NCBI GenBank assembly: GCA_965112155.1
Contig: OZ218101.1
From: Podarcis liolepis
Lineage: Eukaryota
Strand: one strand, 5' to 3'
Length of the DNA: 64,000 bases
Under the pieces are notes generated by a model. It did no database searches and was not told the origin of the DNA. It was given only the letters and a program-made list of their open reading frames with translations. The stretch's first letter is position 1; each line of letters begins with the position of its first letter. Shown piece after piece: positions 6,361 to 61,764 of this stretch. The position numbers were made by a program, and so were the translations under genes.

Positions 6361-6899
6361 TATCTTATATCTGAAGATGTGGACTCTACACTATGAAAAC
6401 TCATGCCACAGTACATTTGTTAGTCTTTCAAGTGCCACAAGATTCTTTACTGTTTAAAATACAGCATTATTCCTTTTGCTTAACAGTCTCACTGCTTCAC
6501 CTTAATTTTATTCTACAGACATCACCTCTAGAGTAGAGAGAGGCAGTCTTCATGCATTGTCATATACTTCTGTCTGTCAGAACAAATGGTAAGTATGTCC
6601 TCTAGAGATTTCACTGAAACTATTAATTACTTTCACTTTCCCCTTGTAATTTTCATCACTGCTAACATAGTTCAGCTAAAAAAAGAGAGAGACTCTAATC
6701 AATACAACACTGACATATGAAATGGGGTTGCTTGTTTTTAGTTAAAGGGTTTCATAAAATGATCTTGTAATTGTTGAGTTTACTAAAAATGATCTCGTAC
6801 TTGGGGTTACATAAAAAATATATCGTATACCTCTCAAAAAACATCTCAAAGAACAGCTAGGAAAGGGGACAGAAAGGGTATTTGTTTGTGATTAAAGGT

Positions 6900-17949: not shown

Positions 17950-19238
17950 TCATGTTAATGTTACCTATAGCCAACAGTAAAGAGGGAAAAGGGGGCTTGG
18001 GAGAGAAATGGGATGGGCGGGGGGGGGGCAGAGAAGCAGCGCTGCTCTGTGCCCCCCCCAGTCTTCTCTTCAATCCTTCAGCTGCCTCACGTTGTGTGTG
18101 TGTCTGTCTCTCCCCCCTCCCTCCCACCGCGATCCCTGAGGGGAACATGAGAGTGGGTGTGGTGTTTTACAGTGCTTTAATCCACACCCCAGCTCTTCCA
18201 ATTCCGGCTCTCCTCCCCCCCCCCCCACCTCCGTGTTTGCTCTACGAAGAGCAGCAACAGCAGCAGCAAAACGAGCAGAACGAGCCCAGGCTGTGGGGAG
18301 GCCGCCCGGGCGAGCTCCAGCAGGAGGGTGCTGCGCTCTCTCCCCTCCTCTCCCTCGCGCGCACACCCCGCCGCGCCTGTCGCTTCCCGCCTCTCTCGAC
18401 TCCTTCCATAGTGGGAGCGACACCCCCCCCTCACCGCCGCGCGCGTTTACACAGCAGCGGCGGCCGCCTCATCCAGCAGCAACAACCGTGCCCACCGCCA
18501 CTCGCTCTTTCCTCCAGCCCCAGCGGCACGTTGGGAGTTTATTCTCCTCAAGCAGTTTCTTCCCGCGCTGAGGGTAGGGGTGGCTGGGTTGCCTTTTTTA
18601 ATTTTTAATATTTTTGAGGGGGTGCTGTGGAGAGGGAAGGAAGGAGCTCGCGCGCCAAGATGTTGCTCAGGCGTCCCTCTTATGGAAGTTAAGGGAAGCA
18701 ACTCCGCAGCTTGAAGTGATTTTGAGGAGGGGGGGGAGGTTGGAAGAGGAAGAAAATGAGAAGCAGGAGAGTTAAGCCAAGCCCTTGATTTTGCTCCCTC
18801 CTTCCCCGCCTTTTCCTCAGAGCGCCGAGAACTTTGAGCGAGGTGGTGGCGGCGGGAGGGGACGCACTTTCTAGGAAACGTATCTGCTTTCAAAGTCTCT
18901 CGTCTGCCGAAGAAATCCCCGGGCTCTGGATTGCAATGGAGAGTCTTAGCCACACTTGAACAATTCCTCTGCCTCCGCTGGATTGGTGGGAATTTCGGAA
19001 GCGGAGCCAGCGCGCCGAGCTGGGAGCGGTGCCCCCTCTTCCTCCCTCGCTCTCCCCCTCGCGCTGCTAATCTGCATGGAGCTCAAAGTGTCCCATTCAA
19101 GCCTCTTTCTCGCCGCTGCTCTCCAGGCTCCTTCCACGTATCCTTAGGTTGTAGGAGAATCTCAACTTTTGGGACTACTCCCCCCCTCTATTTTTTTCTC
19201 TCTCTCCCTGGAATTGGATTGCCTTTGAATATGTTAAA
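17950..19238 (+). promoter_or_regulatory. ROBO2: CpG island: promoter and 5' UTR of the ROBO2b-type transcript
   Basis: Sharp rise in GC and CpG content (cgcgcg, ccgccgcgc, G/C runs, short CAG tract) against an AT-rich background, directly upstream of the ATG and free of recognisable TEs. Exact TSS cannot be read from sequence. Confidence 0.85.
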
Positions 19239-19293
19239 ATGGGGCTGCTGACGCCACTCCTGCTGCTTGGATTTGTCTCTTTTCAAGTTGATG
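19239..19293 (+). CDS. ROBO2: ROBO2 first coding exon (ROBO2b-type), signal peptide MGLLTPLLLLGFVSFQVD(G)
   Basis: ATG in strong context (aaaATGG), hydrophobic 18 codons + 1 nt ending ...VD-G, then GTAAGT donor at 19294. Phase 1 joins the 50861 exon in frame (G|GA = Gly, then SRLRQEDF). Resembles the recalled human ROBO2b N-terminus MSLLMFTQLLLCGFLYVRVDG and lies at the 3' edge of a CpG island. Confidence 0.93.
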
Positions 19294-22489: not shown

Positions 22490-23790
22490 TGGGCCTCTGG
22501 ATCAGACATAATGCCCATTTAGTCCAGCAGCCTGTTTCTCACAGTGTCCAACCAGAAAGGTGAGGTCATTAGCACTTTCCCACTGTTCCTTAGTATTCAG
22601 AGGCATCGGGACTGGTAGCTATTCATGGACCTATTCTTCAAGAATTTGTCTATTCCAGCTTTAAAGCTATCCAGATTGGTGGTAATCACCACAACCTGTG
22701 GTAGGAAGCACTTATTTAGGAGGTGTTTAGTCATGTCAGACTCTTCGTGATGCCGTGGACCAGAGCACGCCAGGCACTTCTGTCTTCCACTGCCTCTTGC
22801 AGTTTGGTCAAACTCATGTTAGTAGCTTTGAGAACACTGTCCAACCATCTCTTCCTCTGTTGTCCCATTCTCCTTGTGCCCTCAATCTTTCCCAACATCA
22901 AGGTCTTTTCCAGGGAGTCTTCTCTTCTCATGTGGTGGCCAAAGTATTGGAGCCTCATCTTCAGAATGTGACCTTCCAGTGAGCACTCAGGGCTGATTTC
23001 CTTAAGAATGGATAGGATTGATCATCTTGCAGTCTATGGGACTCTCAAGAGTCTCCTTCATCACCATAATTCGAAAGCATCAATTCTTTGGCAACCAGCC
23101 TTCTTTATGGTCCAGCTCCCACTTCCATACATCACTACTAGGAAAACCATAGCTTTAACTATATGGACCTTTGTCAGCAAGGTGATGTCTCTGCTTTTTA
23201 AGATGCTGTCTAGGTTTGTCATTGCTTTTCTCCCAAGAAGCAGGCGTCTTTTAATTTTGTGACTACTGTCACCATCTGCAGTGATCATGGAGCCCAAGAA
23301 AGTAAAATCTCTCACTGCCTCCATTTCTTCCCCTTCTATTTGTCAGGAGGTGATGGGACCAGTGGACTTATTTAGGTAGGAAGTATTTATTTTTGTCTAT
23401 CTCTCCTGCTGTGATTGGATTACCGCACATTCTAGTATTATGAGAGAGGGAGGAAAAACAAGTTTCTCTATCCAGTTTATTTACATCGTGCATAATATTA
23501 TAAACCTTTGTCAAATTCCTCCCTTGTCAACTTTTTTCAACACTAAAATCCCCATATGTTGTAACCCTTTCTCTTAAGGGAGTCTGTCTATCCACCTGAT
23601 CATTTTGGCTGATTTTTCCCCTGGACCATTCACAGATCTACAACATACTTTTTGAGATATGACAACCAGAACTCTACACAGCATTCTAACTGTGGCCACA
23701 CTATTTGTTGTAAAGGCGTTATACTCTTAGCTTTATTTTCAGTACCTTTCCTAACAAACCCTAACATGGAATTTACCTTTTTCACAGCAA
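22490..23790 (-). mobile_element. Old CR1 LINE 3' region, interrupted by BovB
   Basis: Reverse complement of CR1 3' sequence (gtccagcagcctgtttctcacagtg; accagaactctacacagcattctaactgtggcc) on both sides of the BovB insertion. Confidence 0.75.
22721..23365 (-). mobile_element. 5'-truncated BovB (RTE) LINE
   Basis: Minus ORFs DFTFLGSMITADGDSSHKIKRRLLLGRKAMTNLDSILKSRDITL...RIDAFELW and LQYFGHHMRREDSLEKTLMLGKIEG...AWRALVHGITKS are the typical BovB C-terminus; 11-bp TSD acttatttagg at 22710-22720 and 23366-23376. Confidence 0.95.
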
Positions 23791-31823: not shown

Positions 31824-32068
31824 CAGTCGTACCTTGGTTGCTGAACACCCTTCAACTCATACGTTTAGGCTCCCGAACACCTCAAACCCAGAAGTGATTG
31901 TTCCGCTTTGTGAACGTTATTTTGGAACATCCGATGGGGCTTCCATAGCTTCTGATTGGCTGCAGGAAGCTCCTGCAGCCAATCAGAAGCTGTGATTTGG
32001 TTTTTGGACATTTTGGAAGTCAAATGGACTTCCAGGACGGATTCCTTTCAACTTCCAAGGTATGATTG
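31824..32068. mobile_element. Tc1/mariner MITE, CAGTCGTACC family
   Basis: TA-cagtcgtaccttgg...ccaaggtatgattg-TA; internal hairpin ctgattggctgcagga agc tcctgcagccaatcag. Confidence 0.85.
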
Positions 32069-32069
32069 T

Positions 32070-32330
32070 ACATCTTTATCATGCTGTCCTTACCTTTTTT
32101 CTAAACTAAACTATGACCTTTTTTTCTTAGGGAAGTTGTTCCAGCTTCCTGCTCATTTTTCTTAAACTTTTCCAGCTCTACAATATGTTTTTAAGGTGTG
32201 GGAACCAGAACTGCTACAAGTATTTCACCTGTGGTCTCACCACATATTTGTATAACAGCATTATGATATTGGTTTCTTTTTCAATCTCTTTCCTAATGAT
32301 CTCCAACATGGAATTCGTCTTTCGAGAACA
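32070..32330 (-). mobile_element. CR1 fragment
   Basis: ggtgtgggaaccagaactgctacaagtatttcacctgtggtctcacca...ttcctaatgatctccaacatggaatt; homologous to 23600-23780. Confidence 0.65.
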
Positions 32331-32389
32331 TACATTATCTAGTCCTGTTCGTAGTCCAGGTTCAGGCATAGTTTTAGAACTGTATTAGC

Positions 32390-33520
32390 TTGATGGGTTA
32401 ACCTTATTAGGAGAGGATGGGAAGGCGTGACACTATCAGTTCTCCTTGATATATCTATGGCTTTTACTACCATCTGCGATGGCATCCTGCTTGCGAATTT
32501 GGAATTGAGGGCACAGTATTGCTTTAGTTCCACTGCTGAATACACAGCCATTACCAGAAAGTACTACTGGATGGTGCCTGCTTGACCCCTAGGCTTTCAG
32601 GCTGTGGGGTTCCACAGGCTTCTATTCTGCCCTCATTGGTTCTTAACATCTATGTGAATTGGTTGGGATCATTCATTAGGACATTTGGAGTGAGGTATCA
32701 TGGAGTGAGTATGTTGATTACCAGCAGTATGCTGACAATACTCTGCTCTATTTCTTTGTATCAATTGAATTAGTTAAGGCTGTGCAGGTCTTGGACCAGT
32801 GCTTGGATGTAGTGGTTGGCTGGATGAGGCCAAACAAGTTGAAACTGAATCTTAACAAGATGAAAACCCTGTATGTAGGTACTTCCCAGGTCTGGGAACT
32901 GGAGAGTTTCCTGCTCTAGACAGCATTGTACTCTATCTAAGACCAGGTGCATAGTCTGGGGTTGCTCCTAGAGTCAATGTTGTCATTGGAAGCTCAAGGG
33001 GTCTCTCTGGCAAGGAGTGTCCTTTATTAGCTCTGGGCTTTTTCCTGGACAGGGAGAACCTTCTCACATTGATCTATGCATTAGTAACTTCTAGATTGGA
33101 CTACTACAATGCACTGCATGTGGAGCTGTCCTTGAAGCTGGTTTAGAAGTTACAGCTAGTGTAGAATGATATGGCTTTTTGGATTGGCCTACCACACACA
33201 AAACTGCACCGATTGCCTACAAGCCCACTTTAGTTACCTTTAATGGCTTAAGAAGTCATATACAACTTGGGGTCAGGATTCCTGAAAGAATAGCTCATTA
33301 GGATCTACCTGGGAAGACTTTATTGGCACAGGGAAGAACCTTCTTGGTTGTAGTGCCCCAGTTTTTGACATTGCACCCACTGTGATAATGCTGATGCCTA
33401 CTCTTAAATTTTAGATGCCGTCTGAAGACTTGGTTATTCTTTCAGACTTTGAGTAGCATATAGTGCCAATATTGATGTTTTTAGTAACTGTATTGTTAAT
33501 TTGAGTTGTAACCTGCTCTG
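32390..33520 (+). mobile_element. Highly degenerate L2 RT region
   Basis: Relic motifs CGVPQAS, NIYV, YAD (cagtatgctgacaata), NKLKLN and SRLDY in colinear order with the L2 at 37500-38685. Confidence 0.8.
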
Positions 33521-34145
33521 ATATTTCTGTGCAATGAATAACATGTATATGAGAGAAGTTAGGTAGCCAGCCATAAATCGACAGCTGAATCATTTCACGA
33601 TGAAGGAAACATCCTAGCTCTCTGATACTTTCTGACTCAAAACTTCTCCCGTGTTCTGGTTTTTTTTCTTTTAGTGCTAAAGTTCATCAGACTTATTGTG
33701 AAGCTTGTGGCAAAACCAACTTGATAATAGTCTAATCTTATAGTAATCTTACCCTTTTTAAAATTCAAATGTCCTTATTCGTGAGCTTTTCCATATTGCA
33801 TTTCTGCCATTGAGCTCCTGAACTTCAATAAGCTTCTGAGCTTCTTTTTTAATCTGATGAAGCCAATTATTATTAAACTATTTGTAAACGAGCAGTAGAT
33901 GCCTATCTTGAGGAATTTCAGTCAATTGTCATTATGCATACTATTGATTAGGTTTTCTTTGTTCAGTGATAGCCTGTCTTTACAGAATGTTAAAGTGCTT
34001 AGTAAACAGCAGTAAAATTAATTTTATAATATAAAATATTGCTATGAAATCTATGCTTTATAAAGAGGGGAAAATATACTTTGTAGGAAAGAACGATTTT
34101 GTATGCAGAAGAGAGAGGTTTGTGTTTATTATAAATAATGCACAT

Positions 34146-34432
34146 GGGGAGATGATTAGATTAAAGAACTGGCCTTTCACCTTGAAGGCCACAGTTCAAA
34201 TTAAACCTTAGGTTGTAAGTAAATTGAGATGAATGGGTTTAGCTTTGTCCCTGGCGTAAAGCAGTCTATATCTCAAAAATCACCATACATCTGTTTTTGC
34301 AAACTTGGCATAATTGGCATTCTCTTAGGACAGTGCTGGCATTGAAACTATTGCTTATCGCTGAGGAAGATGGTCTCTCCAGGTCAGGGTTAAGATCATT
34401 GGCAGGTCTATGAAGAAAACCTTGTTTGTCTG
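34146..34432 (+). mobile_element. LF-SINE-like ancient SINE copy
   Basis: Ordered blocks gcctttcacct, gttcaaat, aaaatcaccat, ttggcataattggcattctc, gatggtctctccaggtcagggttaagatcattggcagg match the LF-SINE consensus as recalled (GCCTTTCACCT...AAAACCACCAT...TTGGCACTAATTGGCACC...GGTGGTCCCTCCAGGTCAGGGTTGAGGCACATTGGCAGG). Confidence 0.75.
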
Positions 34433-35525
34433 TATTAATGATCCATTTTTCTCATATTAGAAATAATGCTAAAGGTGCTCATATAAAATTTATCCTCTTG
34501 TTTTAATATATTAAGGTAGATAAAAAGAAATAACACTTTTAGATAGTACATTTTCATGAACCTCAAAGTTCAAATCTTCACCAGCATTTTAAAAAGCAAC
34601 AGTGACAGTTATATTAAGGTTTAATCATGGGCATTTGATGTTTGTGATAATTCAGAATATAAAATGCGTATTAATTAGTTCAGCATTTGTTATTGTTTGT
34701 TGAATTTGAGGACTAGGTTGAATGTTTTTGAATAATGTCAGTGGGTTTTCCCAGGAGGCAATCTGGTTCTTGTCACTTCTTGCTTCATCATTACTTCTTC
34801 AAAGGAAAATAATGCATATCACCCTTTTTCTGGGGAGAGACAACTTTCCCTGTTACATTTTCCTTAGTTGGCTGATGGAGGGTTAGAATACCCCCCATCA
34901 ATGTCCATCTGTTGTAGCTTCTTTAATATAATGTGGCCCTAGTTCACCTTGTGTCTTCCCTCCTTATTCCAGTGTCTGGCTGCAATTATGTTTTGTTGTT
35001 TTACATTGTTTATATATCTAGACAGTACTAGATGTATATGCACAAATCTATTAAACATTTGTAGACATATATGTGTATGAAACACAGTTGTGACTGAAGT
35101 TGGTCATTTGCGAATCCTACTGCCCTTTCATTTGCCACTTCGTTCCTTGTGCCTAGGGAGTTCTTTCTGCTTGCCTCATCCACGTGGTTTCACACAAGAC
35201 CCTTCCACGCAGTCAGTACAGTATTTCGGATGGGGAGGTGACTGGATAACTGTATAAATCTTTTTTTAGCAAAATGTATTCAGGCATAGTGGTTGAGTGA
35301 TACACTGCTTGTACCTTAAAAACCTTCAAAATATGTGCATTGTTTAACTTTGCTGGAGTGATGGTGGGTTTTTGTATCAAGTCTGAGTAAGATTCATGTG
35401 ATTTGTTCAAAATATATAGATATCTGTTATCCATTGAGATGTTGCTGTTGGAGTGTGATAAGGAACATAGATTAAATAAGAACATTCTTCACTTTCTCAA
35501 AGTCACCTGCTACCTTTGTACAGAG

Positions 35526-36580
35526 TAGGGCTAGATAATACTTGATTTTCAACATCATGATATATCACCAGCTAAATATCACAATATTTCAAGATAGCAA
35601 TATATATATCTGTGGCAGCGGAGGGCCTTGCTGGGCCTCCCCATGGCGGCAGGGGTCTTGCGGTACCTCCCCACGGTGGTGGAGGGTGCGCCATGCTTCC
35701 CCACAGCTGCAGAAGGGCTTGCCGTACCTCCCCTTGCCGGCAGCGGGTGTGCCACGCTTCCCTGCAGCAGCGGAAGGCCTTGACCAGGCTCCCTGCAGCT
35801 AGGGCCTTAAAATGCAATGTAGTAGATTTAATAAAAAATATTAAATAAACTTCTGTATAATATATGTAATATATTTCCAACTAATTTAAGAGTAGTTTAA
35901 CTGATTTACTAGTCAAGTTGCTATTGGGCATTTGAAACATGCCACAGAGTGCATGCAGAGGAGACCACACAGATGGAATCACTGAAGAGATGCAGAGAGA
36001 TATTTGCAAGGTTTAATTACAAAACTCATTTAACATACATCTTACATAGTGTCTATAATCATCACCCACCCATCCACCAGGGGGCAGAGTAAGGTACATA
36101 CTGCACATTATATACCATTCACAATTGCTGACACAGCTAATTACAGTGACTTATCAGCACCTGGTACACTACTACACAGTTGTAAAAAACTGGGTCAGGA
36201 TATGCACCCTGGCTTTTAAAGTGGTATACACCCTGTGAAACAATAATGAACCCTAACATTTAAATAAACCATTCAACAGTCGCATCTGCTTCCCCACTCA
36301 GAGGTGTAAGTGGAATCTATGCATGCACAAGCCACTCTTCTACTTTCCTGGGAGTAAGCCAGTAAGATACCAGTAAAGGTGAAAGAGTTTTCATCATTTC
36401 TTATCGGTTAGGAGGGTGGAGGGAGAGAGCAACAAAGCATGAGACAGGTGCCTGCAAATTATCTGTAAAGGATCTGTTCAGCTGAGCTACCCCCTGGGAC
36501 ACTGTCAAGTCTCAAACAGTTATCACAATGTTATTTCAATACTGGTATTCAACTGTATGGTGATTTATCACACAGCCCTA
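35526..36580. mobile_element. ~1.05 kb non-autonomous hAT element
   Basis: Ends tagggct... / ...agcccta with related subterminal tatcac motifs; 8-bp TSD gtacagag / gtacagaa. Confidence 0.75.
35612..35800. repeat. GC-rich ~30-bp-period degenerate minisatellite (~6 units) inside the hAT element
   Basis: Units such as ggcagcggagggccttgctgggcctccccat / ggcggcaggggtcttgcggtacctccccac / ggtggtggagggtgcgccatgcttccccac. Confidence 0.7.
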
Positions 36581-36629
36581 GTACAGAATAGGGGCTTTTT
36601 TTGCATGCCATTGCAAACTAATCAAAGAA

Positions 36630-38761
36630 TTGGTTATTCTTTCAGCTGATTCCCTGGTGGCATCCTGGAATGCGGAGTTAACCAGGGCTATTGACTGTCT
36701 GGCTCTGAAGCGCCCTCTCCAATTGCATGGAGCCCGGACAGCCCCGTGGTTTTCCCCGGAGCTGAGGGTGATGAAACAATCGTTGAGACGGCTAGAGCAC
36801 CGGTGGCGGAAAACTCATTTTGAATAAGACCGGGCACGGGCTAGAGCTCAACGTCGAGCCTACCAAGTGGCAATGGCGACGGTGAAGAGGGCCTTCTTCA
36901 CCGCCTCCATTGCATCTGCAGAAAACAGCAGCAGGCGACTTTTTCAGGTGGTTCGCAATCTATCGGAACCACCTGTACCACCGGGGCCTGGTAGGGACCC
37001 CAAGATCTCCTGCAATGCTTTTGCAAAGTTTTTTGCAGATAAAATTGCTCAGATTCAGAAGGAGGTAGACTCCACCGTGGGAGCAGGGCCAGGGCGGGAG
37101 AGTGCTAGAGTTCTGTCTGGTCCTGTTACATGGGATCAATTCCAATCTGTTACCTCCGAGGATGTGGACAGGCTGCTTGGACAAGTGAAACCGACCACCT
37201 GTCTCCTTGATCCTTGCCCATCCTGGCTGATAAAAGCGAGCCGGGAAGGGCTGGGCGATGGGCTCTGCGGGGTGGTGAATGCTTCCCTCTGTGAAGGGAG
37301 CCTTCCCAGACCCGCTGAAAGAGGCGGTCATTAAACCGCTTCTTTAAAAAACATCTTTAGACCTGGCCAATTTGGCCAACTATCGCCCAGTCTCAAATCT
37401 GCCATTCTTGGGCAAGGTGATTGAGCGGGTGGTTGCTGAACAACTCCAAGCACGCCTGGAGGAAACGAACCATTTGGATCCCTTCCAATTGGGACTCACC
37501 ATGGGACTGAAACTGCCTTGGTCGCGCTGGTTGATGATCTCCGGTGGGCTAGGGACAAAGGTGAGAGCTGTTTCCTAGTTCTGCTGGATCTCTCAGCGGC
37601 CTTTGACACCATCGACCATAACATCCTTCTGGACCGTCTAGAGGGGCTGGGAGCTGGGGGCACTGTCATACAGTGGTTCCGCTCCATCCTCCTGGGCCGT
37701 GTCCAGAAAGTGGTGGTGGGGGATGAGTGTTCAGACCCCTGGGCTCTCACTTGTGGGGTGCCTCAGGGTTGTGTCCTCTCCCCCATGCTTTTTAATATCT
37801 ATATGAAGCCGCTGGGAGAGATCATCAGGGGGTTTGGACTGGGTGTTCATCAGTATGCAGATGACACCCAGCTCTACCTCTCCTTTAAATCAGAACCAGT
37901 GAAGTCGGTGAAGGTCCTGTGTGAGTGCCTGGAGGCGGTTGGAGGATGGATGGCGCCTAACAGATTGAGGTTGAATCCTGACAAGACAGAAGTACTGTTT
38001 TTGGGGGACAGGGAGCGGGTTGGTGTGGGGGATTCCCTGGTCTTGAATGGGGTAACTGTGCCCCTGAAGGACCAGGTGCGCAGCCTGGGAGTCATTTAAC
38101 TCTGCGCAGGTTAACTCTGTGTCCAGGGCAGCTGTCTACCAGCTCCACCTGGTACGCAGGCTAAGACCCTACCTGCCCGCGAACTGTCTCGCCAGAGTGG
38201 TGCATGCTCTAGTTATCTCACGCTTGGACTACTGCAATGCGCACTACGTAGGGCTACCTTTGAAGGTGACCCGGAAACTGCAATTAATCCAGAATGCGGC
38301 AGCTAGACTGGTGACTGGGAGTGGCTGCCGGGACCACATAACACCGGTTCTGAGAGATCTGCATTGGCTCCCAGTATGTTTCCGAGCACGATTCAAAGTG
38401 TTGGTGCTGACCTTTAAAGCCCTAAACAGCCTCGGTCCTGTATACCTGAAGGAGCGTCTCCACCCCCATCGTTCAGCCCGGACACTGAGATCCAGTGCCG
38501 AGGGCCTTCTGGCGGTTCCCTCATTGCGAGAAGTGAGGCTACAGGGAACCAGACAGAGGGCCTTCTCGGTAGTGGCGCCTGCCCTGTGGAACGCCCTCCC
38601 ATCAGATGTCAAAGAGATAAATAATTACCTGACATTCAGAAGACATCTTAAGGCAGCCCTGTTCAGGGAAGTTTTTAATATGTAACGCTGTACTGTTTTT
38701 AACACTGATTGGGAGCCGCCCAGAGTGGCTGGGGAAACTCAGCCAGATGGGCGGGGAATAA

Positions 38762-38813
<52 letters not shown>
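36630..38813 (+). mobile_element. Young 5'-truncated L2/CR1-superfamily LINE; RT-containing ORF2 broken by frameshifts, (TTA)n tail
   Basis: NYRPVSNLPFLGKVIE, LLDLSAAFDTIDH, GVPQG, YADDTQLY, SRLDYCN, LHWLPV motifs across ORFs 36630-38685; CpG-rich; short 3' UTR then ~17 TTA units. Confidence 0.95.
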
Positions 38814-38816
<3 letters not shown>

Positions 38817-38959
38817 GTAGCCTAGAAAATTTATGTTGTTTGTCCTGATACCTGTTTCAACTGATCCTCCTAGAGGAAGGGAGCTGATGCTCACTACAGT
38901 AGCAAGCAACTTTAGGGAACTGATGTACCAACAAACTATATTAAAGATAAAATGTAATA

Positions 38960-43527: not shown

Positions 43528-43667
43528 NNNNNNNNNNNNNNNNNNNNNNNNNNNNNNNNNNNNNNNNNNNNNNNNNNNNNNNNNNNNNNNNNNNNNNNNN
43601 NNNNNNNNNNNNNNNNNNNNNNNNNNNNNNNNNNNNNNNNNNNNNNNNNNNNNNNNNNNNNNNNNNN
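43528..43667. other. Assembly gap (140 N)
   Basis: Run of N. Confidence 1.
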
Positions 43668-50814: not shown

Positions 50815-51192
<378 letters not shown>

Positions 51193-59420: not shown

Positions 59421-61764
59421 GCATGAGATGTGACCTGAAATCTTTGAGGGTCACTGCCAGTCAGAGTAGACAGTATTAGGATGGATGGACAAAGCAGTAC
59501 TTCTCTTGTGTGGAGGGGATGGGTGTTACATGCTGTTTACTTATTTTTCTATGGACAAGTGCACTTAATAGTCTGTACTGATTCATTGTAGCTGCATCAT
59601 ATATTCAATAAAACTGAATCTTCAGTAACTTCCTAACCGTAATAATATGTGGCACACTTAGACTAATACTGACAGCAAAAACAAATAATTATGAGTTTGC
59701 TTCAGCAGAGACATCAGACATACAGTTGTATCTCTCTTGTGCATTGGAGGCCAGATTTCACATTTCTGAACATCCACCTTTAACCACTGAGTGAATGCAA
59801 AATCATGCAGCCTAAGGTTGTTTGGCTCTTGCCTTGAGCATGAATGCTTTATGCGGAAAAGGGATACTTCCTGAAAATGAATGCTACACCAGAAGTTTAT
59901 ATATTACCATGCAAGTAGGGTTGAACCGTGGGGAGTTTTCCATGGCTGACATACTACTTCAGTAATATGAAACCAGGCTTCATTAGCTGGATGATCATGT
60001 AACTTTGTGATTTAATGAACTATTATTCATCATTGGGCTAAACATACTTGAACTGGCCCCATTTCAATGTCACTGATTTTTGTTGAGAAATATTTTTTAT
60101 TCTACTATATATTTTGGATTGTTTAATTTTTAACAATGTTTCAGATTACAGCAAATACATTTCCACCATATGCCAACTATGTATTTTCTGTAATGTTTGA
60201 AAGGCAGGAAGCACACATGCAGACACATCCTCTTCACACTTTGTAGAGAAGGCGTGGCTGGCATGCTGTGTGAAATTCTACTTTTTGTACAGTTTGGAAA
60301 GCTACTGAAATGTACATATTCTTCTTGAGAGAGTATTTAAAGCTAAGCATCTTATAGTGCATCTTATATCATTTTTATTCTAACAGTCTGATGCTGTATA
60401 GGTTGATTACTGTTGTTCTCTGTTCCTTGTACTTTTGGCATGCTCAGTATTTTTCTAATTTTAGTCAGTTGAGAAAACAGCATAGCTGATCAAGATAGCA
60501 CATCATATTATTTAACACATTTGCATTTCCACACCTCTGTTCTCTCTGTATAGAAACCCGCAAGTGCTATTTGAATATTAATTAAAATACTGGCTATTGT
60601 TGGCATATGCCTCAGACATGTTGTACAATTTATGATGTCAGATGAGATAAAAAAATCATTTGAAGCAGCACTCCAAACCATTTACAAAACACTACATGAT
60701 CTCAATACTAACAAAGCACATTGAACTCCTAATTGTCAGAAATCATTGGGGTAAAGTTGGTGACATTGATGGGATTTCATTACTAGTAGTTACTTTTGTT
60801 TATAGAAAGTAGAATTCTATCACTTTCTTTTTTGTAACCCCAAGAGATGAAAACTTCTGCATTTTTCATGTAGGGAGTCACTTCACAATATTTGAATAAT
60901 TAAGTATCTGATGCCTGTTCAGTATTCAGAATGACTGGAGCCAGTGGTTTCAGTCTAGTAAGTAACAGGCAAATATCTGAGTTATATAAAGAACTGGTGC
61001 CGTTACCATGACTTCCGTAGATAATATTTGACAGTATTCTCTTAAATGAGTAGAATTGTTGTTCTTTGATATACATGTTGCTAAATATTCTTGCACTGCC
61101 ATGTCCAAGTAGAGACAATGGCCTTGACACATTAGCAAGCAGTCACAATATTTTCTTCCCCCATCTTGCTTGGATATTTCCTTCTTGTTGGACATAATAG
61201 ACACAGAGAACAATAGCAGGGTTAAGTCTTAAAGCCATCACTAATGTGATGACTGACCTATTGATTTCAAAATGGTGCATAAATACAGTTTGCTTTCAAC
61301 ATCCTTACCATATTTTCATTGGGGATTGGTTTGTGTGTATATATATTGAATGGTAGGTGTTTTGTGTGAACTTTTAAAATGGCATAATGTATTTATGTTT
61401 ATGTTATTAAATGTGTTGTAGGCTTATTGATAACAAGTGACTAACAAGTAATGTGATTGTGCTTGCTTAAAAAACAAATGAAGTAGTTACAGTTCTAATT
61501 AAATATTTAGGCATTACTTTTTTTCCTCCATTTGAGGTGGAAAATAAGATACACTTTTAAAAATCACGCTTAAAAAAACCCCAGGACTTGCCTATCTAAT
61601 ATGAGAGTTTTCCCAACAGTTTGGACTCTCAGGGCTGTTTTTCCTATTATACCATCTTCCATCAGTTGTTTTTGCCCCCTTCTCTTCTATCTTAATGAAA
61701 CATTTTTATATACACAAAGGAAATCTCTTGTCAGTTCTGACGATACTAACATTCAAGAGAACTT

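Follow-up and report, generated by a model that had tools for sequence, protein, structure and literature searches.

A worn LF-SINE relic in the first intron of the ROBO2 gene of Podarcis liolepis

Introduction

LF-SINE (LFSINE_Vert) is a tRNA-derived SINE of 481 bp known from Latimeria, according to the available parts of the papers that describe it (PMC5063351, PMC2315648, PMC5753468, PMC9148063). Amniote genomes are reported to retain hundreds to thousands of copies (PMC3649676), and many more faint relics than those already known have been described for the human genome (10.1101/2025.03.14.643233). One LF-SINE corresponds to a tested enhancer of Isl1 (PMC3649676, PMC9148063), and an exon of human PCBP2 is derived from the same element (PMC9148063).

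Here, an LF-SINE relic in a ROBO2 intron of the lizard P. liolepis is compared with these cases. It is like the ISL1 distal enhancer (PMC3649676, PMC3899998, PMC9148063) in coming from the same element, in being non-coding and in lying near a neural-development gene, but it is heavily decayed and is known here from sequence alone. As a candidate cis-element in an intron of the same gene, it can also be compared with the Hoxa2-bound element in intron 2 of mouse Robo2 (PMC2422855). The mouse element is more than 90% conserved, carries a Pbx/Hox site, was tested by ChIP and, in the portions of the source that were available, is not described as derived from a mobile element (PMC2422855). The literature on ROBO2 together with LF-SINE or LFSINE, including PMC5753468 and PMC6470263, shows no link between both in the accessible text, and the published copy lists (Bejerano 2006, Lowe 2007) may already hold the human ortholog. 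Likewise, no LF-SINE element was found in the accessible text of the literature on ROBO2 intronic enhancers.

Materials and methods

The window, that is, the whole stretch of DNA that was analysed, comprises 64 kb (C4:61008001-61072000), and the genome searched amounts to 1.57 Gb in 290 contigs. Coordinates are window positions unless a contig or a copy is named. Family copies were collected with two seeds. One was a 21-nt motif of the window copy with at most 3 mismatches, which gave 83 matches versus 41 in the control. The other was a 5' motif taken from the copy L042 and not from the window, which gave 38 pattern matches versus 3 in the control. Among the 30 loci retrieved in the 5'-motif search, L064, L065, L068, L070 and L072 were removed by eye as chance matches, and one was removed as a duplicate of L042. 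L036 was left out as redundant, and the final set contained 34 copies. A search with a 3' motif returned 7 places, every one of them already in the set. A profile HMM of 430 positions was built from the 34 copies with the window copy excluded. A consensus obtained by star alignment was discarded, as it was biased towards L033. Neutral decay was simulated in 300 runs at each of six distances (0.3 to 0.8), with assumed indel rates and no large deletions. Splice sites were scored with a splice matrix.

Results and discussion

The ROBO2 locus: ROBO2 is encoded on the + strand of the window. The gene also has a distal leader, and intron 1 is numbered here from the proximal leader exon. A CpG island at about 18001-19000 precedes the coding part of this exon, which holds the signal peptide and lies at 19239-19293 (+). 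The Ig1 exon lies at 50861-51187 (+), and 107 of 107 residues agree with those of the ROBO2 chain 6iaa. Both exons are joined by GT-AG splice sites in a single frame, and the relic is located between them, 14.9 kb past the leader exon and 16.4 kb ahead of the Ig1 exon, which confirms the position in ROBO2 intron 1 proposed in the sequence-only reading. Short peptide motifs of the next ROBO2 exon gave no match in the 200 kb past the window.

The locus is poorer in younger repeats than 40 background tiles (16% vs 28%) and has a lower GC content (0.395 vs 0.438). Around the relic itself, 3.2 kb (32324-35525) are free of younger repeats, and the same window has five longer stretches of this type. 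A broken, young-looking LINE is present in the same intron at 36600-38900 (+), 2.2 kb downstream of the relic, with a match to RVT_1 (Pfam, E 2e-26). Another LINE fragment with open stretches, presumably of the RTE/BovB type, is found at 22700-23350 (-). Positions 43528-43667 are 140 N, and the letters beneath them are unreadable.

Recovery of the family: In pairwise alignments, the 29 other loci matched by the window seed did not resemble the window copy significantly in the sequence preceding the seed. Three of them (L004, L007 and L009) appeared family-like on reading and have a longer body in common, and most of the others are other repeats. BLAST with the best of these three copies gave 11 places, including the query itself. 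Alignment, pattern search and BLAST revealed copies scattered over unrelated loci with their block order in common.

The identity of the family comes from PCBP2. The locus L036 (C5, about 82.70 Mb) is a processed retrocopy of PCBP2 with about 190 codons open, and it includes the LF-SINE-derived exon, showing that spliced PCBP2 mRNA of this lineage has carried it. Its 91-nt match leads to L033, where the acceptor and donor of the PCBP2 exon are present and the next PCBP2 exon is nearby. Since the human PCBP2 exon is described as LF-SINE-derived in the available text of PMC9148063, and L033 belongs to the family recovered here, the family could be named LF-SINE.

Evidence that the relic is LF-SINE: When the 64-kb window was searched, the profile matched positions 34216-34408 with 43.6 bits (E 1.9e-13), and the best match in the reversed-window control had an E of 6.9. 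Three of the profile copies owed their discovery to the 21-nt motif of the window itself. This motif was therefore masked for a retest, and the profile still matched 34216-34349 (E 9.4e-5). L033 alone matched the window copy with an E of 0.011. The pairwise alignment with the consensus extended the element to 34140-34412 (+, same strand as ROBO2), corresponding to model positions 8-324 of 430, with a score of 100.5, and 2000 Markov nulls did not exceed 63. A noisier model built only from the 5'-seeded copies gave the window copy an E of 0.25, and the score of the 5' head alone was equalled by 158 of 12,967 background tiles and is not significant. BLAST of the genome with the relic itself returned only the self match, ARAGORN detected no tRNA in the relic, and an Rfam scan of 32000-36500 gave one chance match (mir-297, E 0.58) in an AT repeat outside the element.

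Regarding these data, 34140-34412 very probably belongs to the LF-SINE family. The alternative, a fortuitous resemblance or an old SINE of another family, could find some support in the lack of significant upstream similarity among the 29 seed-matched loci, but it is highly improbable given the E of 1.9e-13 against a profile that excludes the window copy and includes the PCBP2 exon copy, and given that the controls for the profile searches were empty. The ordered LF-SINE-like blocks had been proposed for 34146-34432. Their family and order hold, whereas the last 20 bases (34413-34432) do not align to the family, and 83% of random tiles score equally there. Both blocks quoted as evidence are in place, TAATTGGCA at 34311-34319 and CCAGGTCAGGGTT at 34379-34391. 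As a relic, this copy is ordinary: a real LF-SINE member of a catalogued family.

Parts of the relic: Like the rest of the family, the relic has the same block order, a low-copy scatter and a location near a developmental gene; a tRNA-type head is putative here. Unlike a full LF-SINE (about 480 nt), it is 67% identical, internally deleted and without the 3' quarter. The putative remnant of the tRNA-derived head, proposed from the sequence and its alignment with other copies, occupies 34140-34202 (+) with a decayed A-box region. It contains the family block GCCTTTCACC at 34172-34181 (+) and a stretch, GTTCAAATT, at 34194-34202 (+), whose bases are nearly intact and which we take to be B-box-like. 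About 45 bases behind the head, a middle stretch and the 3' quarter have been deleted; model positions 325-430 are absent, and the relic is thus truncated like most copies found.

Two blocks stand out in the body. In the TTGGCA-TAATTGGCA block at 34305-34319 (+), a TAATTG core lies between two TTGGCA half-sites; we take the core to be of homeodomain type and the half-sites to be putatively of NFI type. The exact TAATTGGCA is intact in the relic and in 2 of the 18 other copies covering this position. The best-kept block, at 34371-34391 (+), agrees with the consensus in 20 of 21 bases. It includes AGGTCA, presumably a putative nuclear-receptor-type half-site, and a splice-donor-like CAG/GTCAGG.

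Decay and neutral simulation: Against the rebuilt consensus, the relic shows 67.4% identity over 258 aligned columns with 13 gaps, and a Kimura distance of 0.43. With a GC content of 0.41, it stands between the consensus (0.51) and the flanks (0.35), and the base changes comprise 43 from GC to AT versus 18 from AT to GC. In leave-one-out scoring, 27 of the 34 other copies scored above the window copy. This ranks it with the most decayed copies found, in a comparison that leans against it because the other copies were found through well-kept seeds.

In the simulation, with its assumed indel rates and without large deletions, the observed pairwise score was reached by 51% of neutral runs at 0.6 substitutions per site, and the HMM score of 43.6 bits by 30%, 4% and 1% of runs at 0.5, 0.6 and 0.7, respectively. 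Hence, a distance of about 0.5-0.6 substitutions per site would account for the divergence of the relic. Between the amniote ancestor and a lizard, neutral sequence would be expected to accumulate a distance of this order or somewhat more. A block of 20/21 appeared in 14%, 10%, 4%, 4%, 0% and 2% of the neutral runs of like identity at distances 0.3 to 0.8, and the best-kept block does not appear exceptional by this measure.

Clustering of relics at ROBO2: Four matches of at least 8 bits were found in a 464-kb region of ROBO2, versus none in the background, sampled as 118 tiles of 10 kb (1,180 kb in all), where the 95% upper bound of relic density is 2.5 per Mb. Apart from the relic described here, they are a weak fragment upstream of the leader exon (6499-6558, -, 13.2 bits, or 9.2 in leave-one-out scoring), another weak fragment behind the Ig1 exon (60905-60985, +, 13.1 bits) and the copy L042 (L042:1406-1734, C4 about 61152690-61153020, -), which scores 99 bits in leave-one-out scoring. 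L042 is located about 80 kb past the window end and antisense to ROBO2, has both ends present and is better kept than the window relic; as exon-type splice sites, its donor and acceptor score poorly, at about 3 bits each.

The cluster has a P of 0.0063 with all four matches, 0.0225 without the window copy and 0.080 if L042 is also left out. Against 20 AT-rich tiles (GC up to 0.41), a comparison of low power, it is not significant (P 0.24-0.49). Part of the cluster may reflect slow turnover, given the AT-rich sequence of the ROBO2 region and its smaller share of younger repeats. The survival of relics may in itself be partly a sign of selection.

Comparison with LF-SINE exons: The LF-SINE cassette exons of PCBP2, SMARCA4 and GRID1 (L033, L035 and L240, all in this genome) belong to the same family as the ROBO2 relic. 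The original LF-SINE list reportedly includes the SMARCA4 and GRID1 exons. In this genome, L035 sits between exons of a BRG1/SMARCA4-type gene. Exon-type splice sites are found at L033:1762-1852, L035:1571-1669 and L240:1772-1990, and these three are among the best-kept copies found. All three exons are antisense to their host gene and derive from the 3' part of the element, with acceptor and donor kept, whereas the ROBO2 relic is in sense orientation and has lost both that part and the exon donor. An antisense cassette exon of the PCBP2 type was considered and rejected, because a relic on the sense strand without the acceptor end cannot form it.

A vertebrate contig in a metagenome collection contains a single family copy (L239, 171.5 bits) beside a GRID1 exon. 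This shows the family, not this locus, in another vertebrate, and it was the sole match of the metagenome scan for a ROBO2 ortholog of the relic. L239 and its ortholog L240 agree in 90 of 100 bases in the best bin of the SINE, in 88 in the coding bins and in about 50-55 in the flanks, the 3' part of the SINE being as conserved as the adjoining GRID1 coding exon. This conservation, far above that of the flanks, indicates that LF-SINE survivors can be under selection. The GRID1 copies are a different case from the ROBO2 relic, because they are antisense to their gene and L240 keeps the donor.

Possible explanations for the relic: We consider it rather probable that this is a worn LF-SINE copy which has decayed at nearly the pace of neutral DNA, selection having acted weakly, if at all, on two short blocks. 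The RNA of a tRNA-headed SINE would have been copied into the ROBO2 intron by LINE reverse transcriptase, a step established for the family, and the insertion probably predates the amniote radiation. The loss of about 45 bases behind the head, of a middle stretch and of the 3' quarter would have followed, with a drift in GC from 51% to 41%, as seen against the consensus rebuilt from the other copies. The relic probably remains recognisable thanks to the character of the ROBO2 region (AT-rich, with few younger repeats and presumably a slow turnover), and not through preservation of the whole copy. The low identity, the 27 of 34 copies with higher scores, the drift towards AT, the simulation that reproduces the scores at 0.5-0.6 substitutions per site and the lack of significance of the cluster against AT-rich tiles all agree with this near-neutral decay, as does the small part of the LFSINE bases covered by Lhx2 peaks in mouse (1,371 of 122,727, about 1%, in the available data of PMC10257727). 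Some results fit it less well: the four relics in 464 kb versus none in 1,180 kb (P 0.0225 even without the window copy), the intact TAATTGGCA, the 90% identity between the GRID1 copies over their best 100 bases with flanks at about 55%, and the 1% of neutral copies that would reach 43.6 bits if the true neutral distance were at least 0.7. On the other hand, the sequence-only reading proposed a neural enhancer of ROBO2, and the relic could be a co-opted intronic enhancer or silencer of this gene, which we regard as possible but doubtful. In this model, a LIM-homeodomain factor of the Lhx2/9 or Isl1 type would bind TAATTG, perhaps assisted by NFI on the TTGGCA half-sites and by a nuclear receptor on AGGTCA. 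In developing neurons, the element might then contact the CpG-island promoter, 15 kb upstream, through a loop. This co-option is suggested by the cluster of relics at ROBO2, by the two short blocks kept while the rest decayed, by the repeat-free stretch around the relic and by the precedent of the Isl1 enhancer. Moreover, Lhx2 peaks in mouse show a 2.8-fold enrichment of LFSINE copies, with an Lhx2-like motif mapped close to one position of the LFSINE consensus (both in the accessible text of PMC10257727); a title on the regulation of Robo1 and Robo2 by Lhx2 appears in the reference list of PMC8900194. Nevertheless, the same study reports that LFSINE accounts for 3 of the 930 TE-derived peaks with an Lhx2 motif in mouse, and its authors found no Lhx2 motif in the LFSINE consensus (PMC10257727, available text). 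The divergence of the relic is not low compared with that of the other copies (67.4% identity, 27 of 34 scoring higher), its decay and AT drift are strong overall, and the kept blocks both appear unexceptional and are the same ones by which the relic was noticed. Five longer repeat-free stretches lie in the same window. In mouse, the candidate Pbx/Hox sites of Robo2 outside the second intron, intron 1 included, were without Hoxa2 binding in the portion of PMC2422855 that was available; these sites may lie at places other than that of the relic. On balance, a function as a regulatory element, judged from the internal evidence, seems rather improbable.

Two further explanations concern features in and around the relic. 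It could supply a 54-nt sense 'poison' exon, predicted at 34329-34382 (+); through a stop in frame, this exon would expose ROBO2 mRNA to nonsense-mediated decay. The donor-like CAG/GTCAGG scores 8.8 bits, among the top 10 in the 31.5-kb intron and comparable with the true donors (9.9 and 8.1), the length of 54 nt keeps the phase with TGA as the sixth codon, and an early stop is present in 11 of 19 known LF-SINE exons in the accessible part of PMC9148063. However, the acceptor scores 5.9 bits versus 8.6 for the true one, with 146 sites as good in the intron, which also has 8 comparable pairs with 5 donors; the donor-like bases are ancestral family sequence, and the exonised copies in PCBP2, SMARCA4 and GRID1 use the opposite strand and the 3' part absent here. 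We consider such an exon very unlikely. Equally remote is a much later re-insertion, in which the internal promoter of an LF-SINE already decayed elsewhere would have driven a transcript ending at a T-run, and its insertion here would have left a young target-site duplication of 15 nt. The relic is flanked by a direct repeat of 15 nt with 14/15 identity, at 34127-34141 (+), where the repeat overlaps the head alignment by a few bases, and at 34455-34469 (+), just past a T5 run at 34446-34450. This geometry was reached at about 13 of 7,692 other locus positions and at none of 27 other copies, the B-box-like bases are nearly intact, and the T5 run lies just inside the right repeat. If it were a real target-site duplication, it would be hard to reconcile with a long neutral decay, since a 14/15 repeat is too well kept for so decayed a copy. 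Against the re-insertion, neither BLAST (E 10) nor a 27-nt pattern with 3 mismatches, both of which can miss copies, found a source or sister copy in the genome; the sequence lacks both an A-rich tail and a cut site of the L1 type; the repeat, itself AT-rich, came to attention only in hindsight; and the one recent LF-SINE insertion of the coelacanth tabulated in the available part of PMC4255032 has a 2-nt duplication. Given the lack of a tail and of a sister copy, chance is the preferred reading of the flanking repeat.

Conclusions

The probably near-neutral relic described here comes with two useful by-products: a ranked set of LF-SINE copies for this genome, and L042, a better-kept copy that suits a functional test more than the window relic does. 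If the enhancer were true, ROBO2 would become one of the few genes for which an LF-SINE enhancer has been tested and would add a reptile example, with a mechanism of a known kind. A broader and unlikely scenario is that ROBO2 holds up to four co-opted LF-SINE regulatory modules, with the window copy as a LIM-homeodomain/NFI enhancer tuning ROBO2 in developing reptile neurons. In that case, the regulatory wiring of a LIM factor gene (ISL1) and that of an axon-guidance receptor would both go back to one ancient retroposon.
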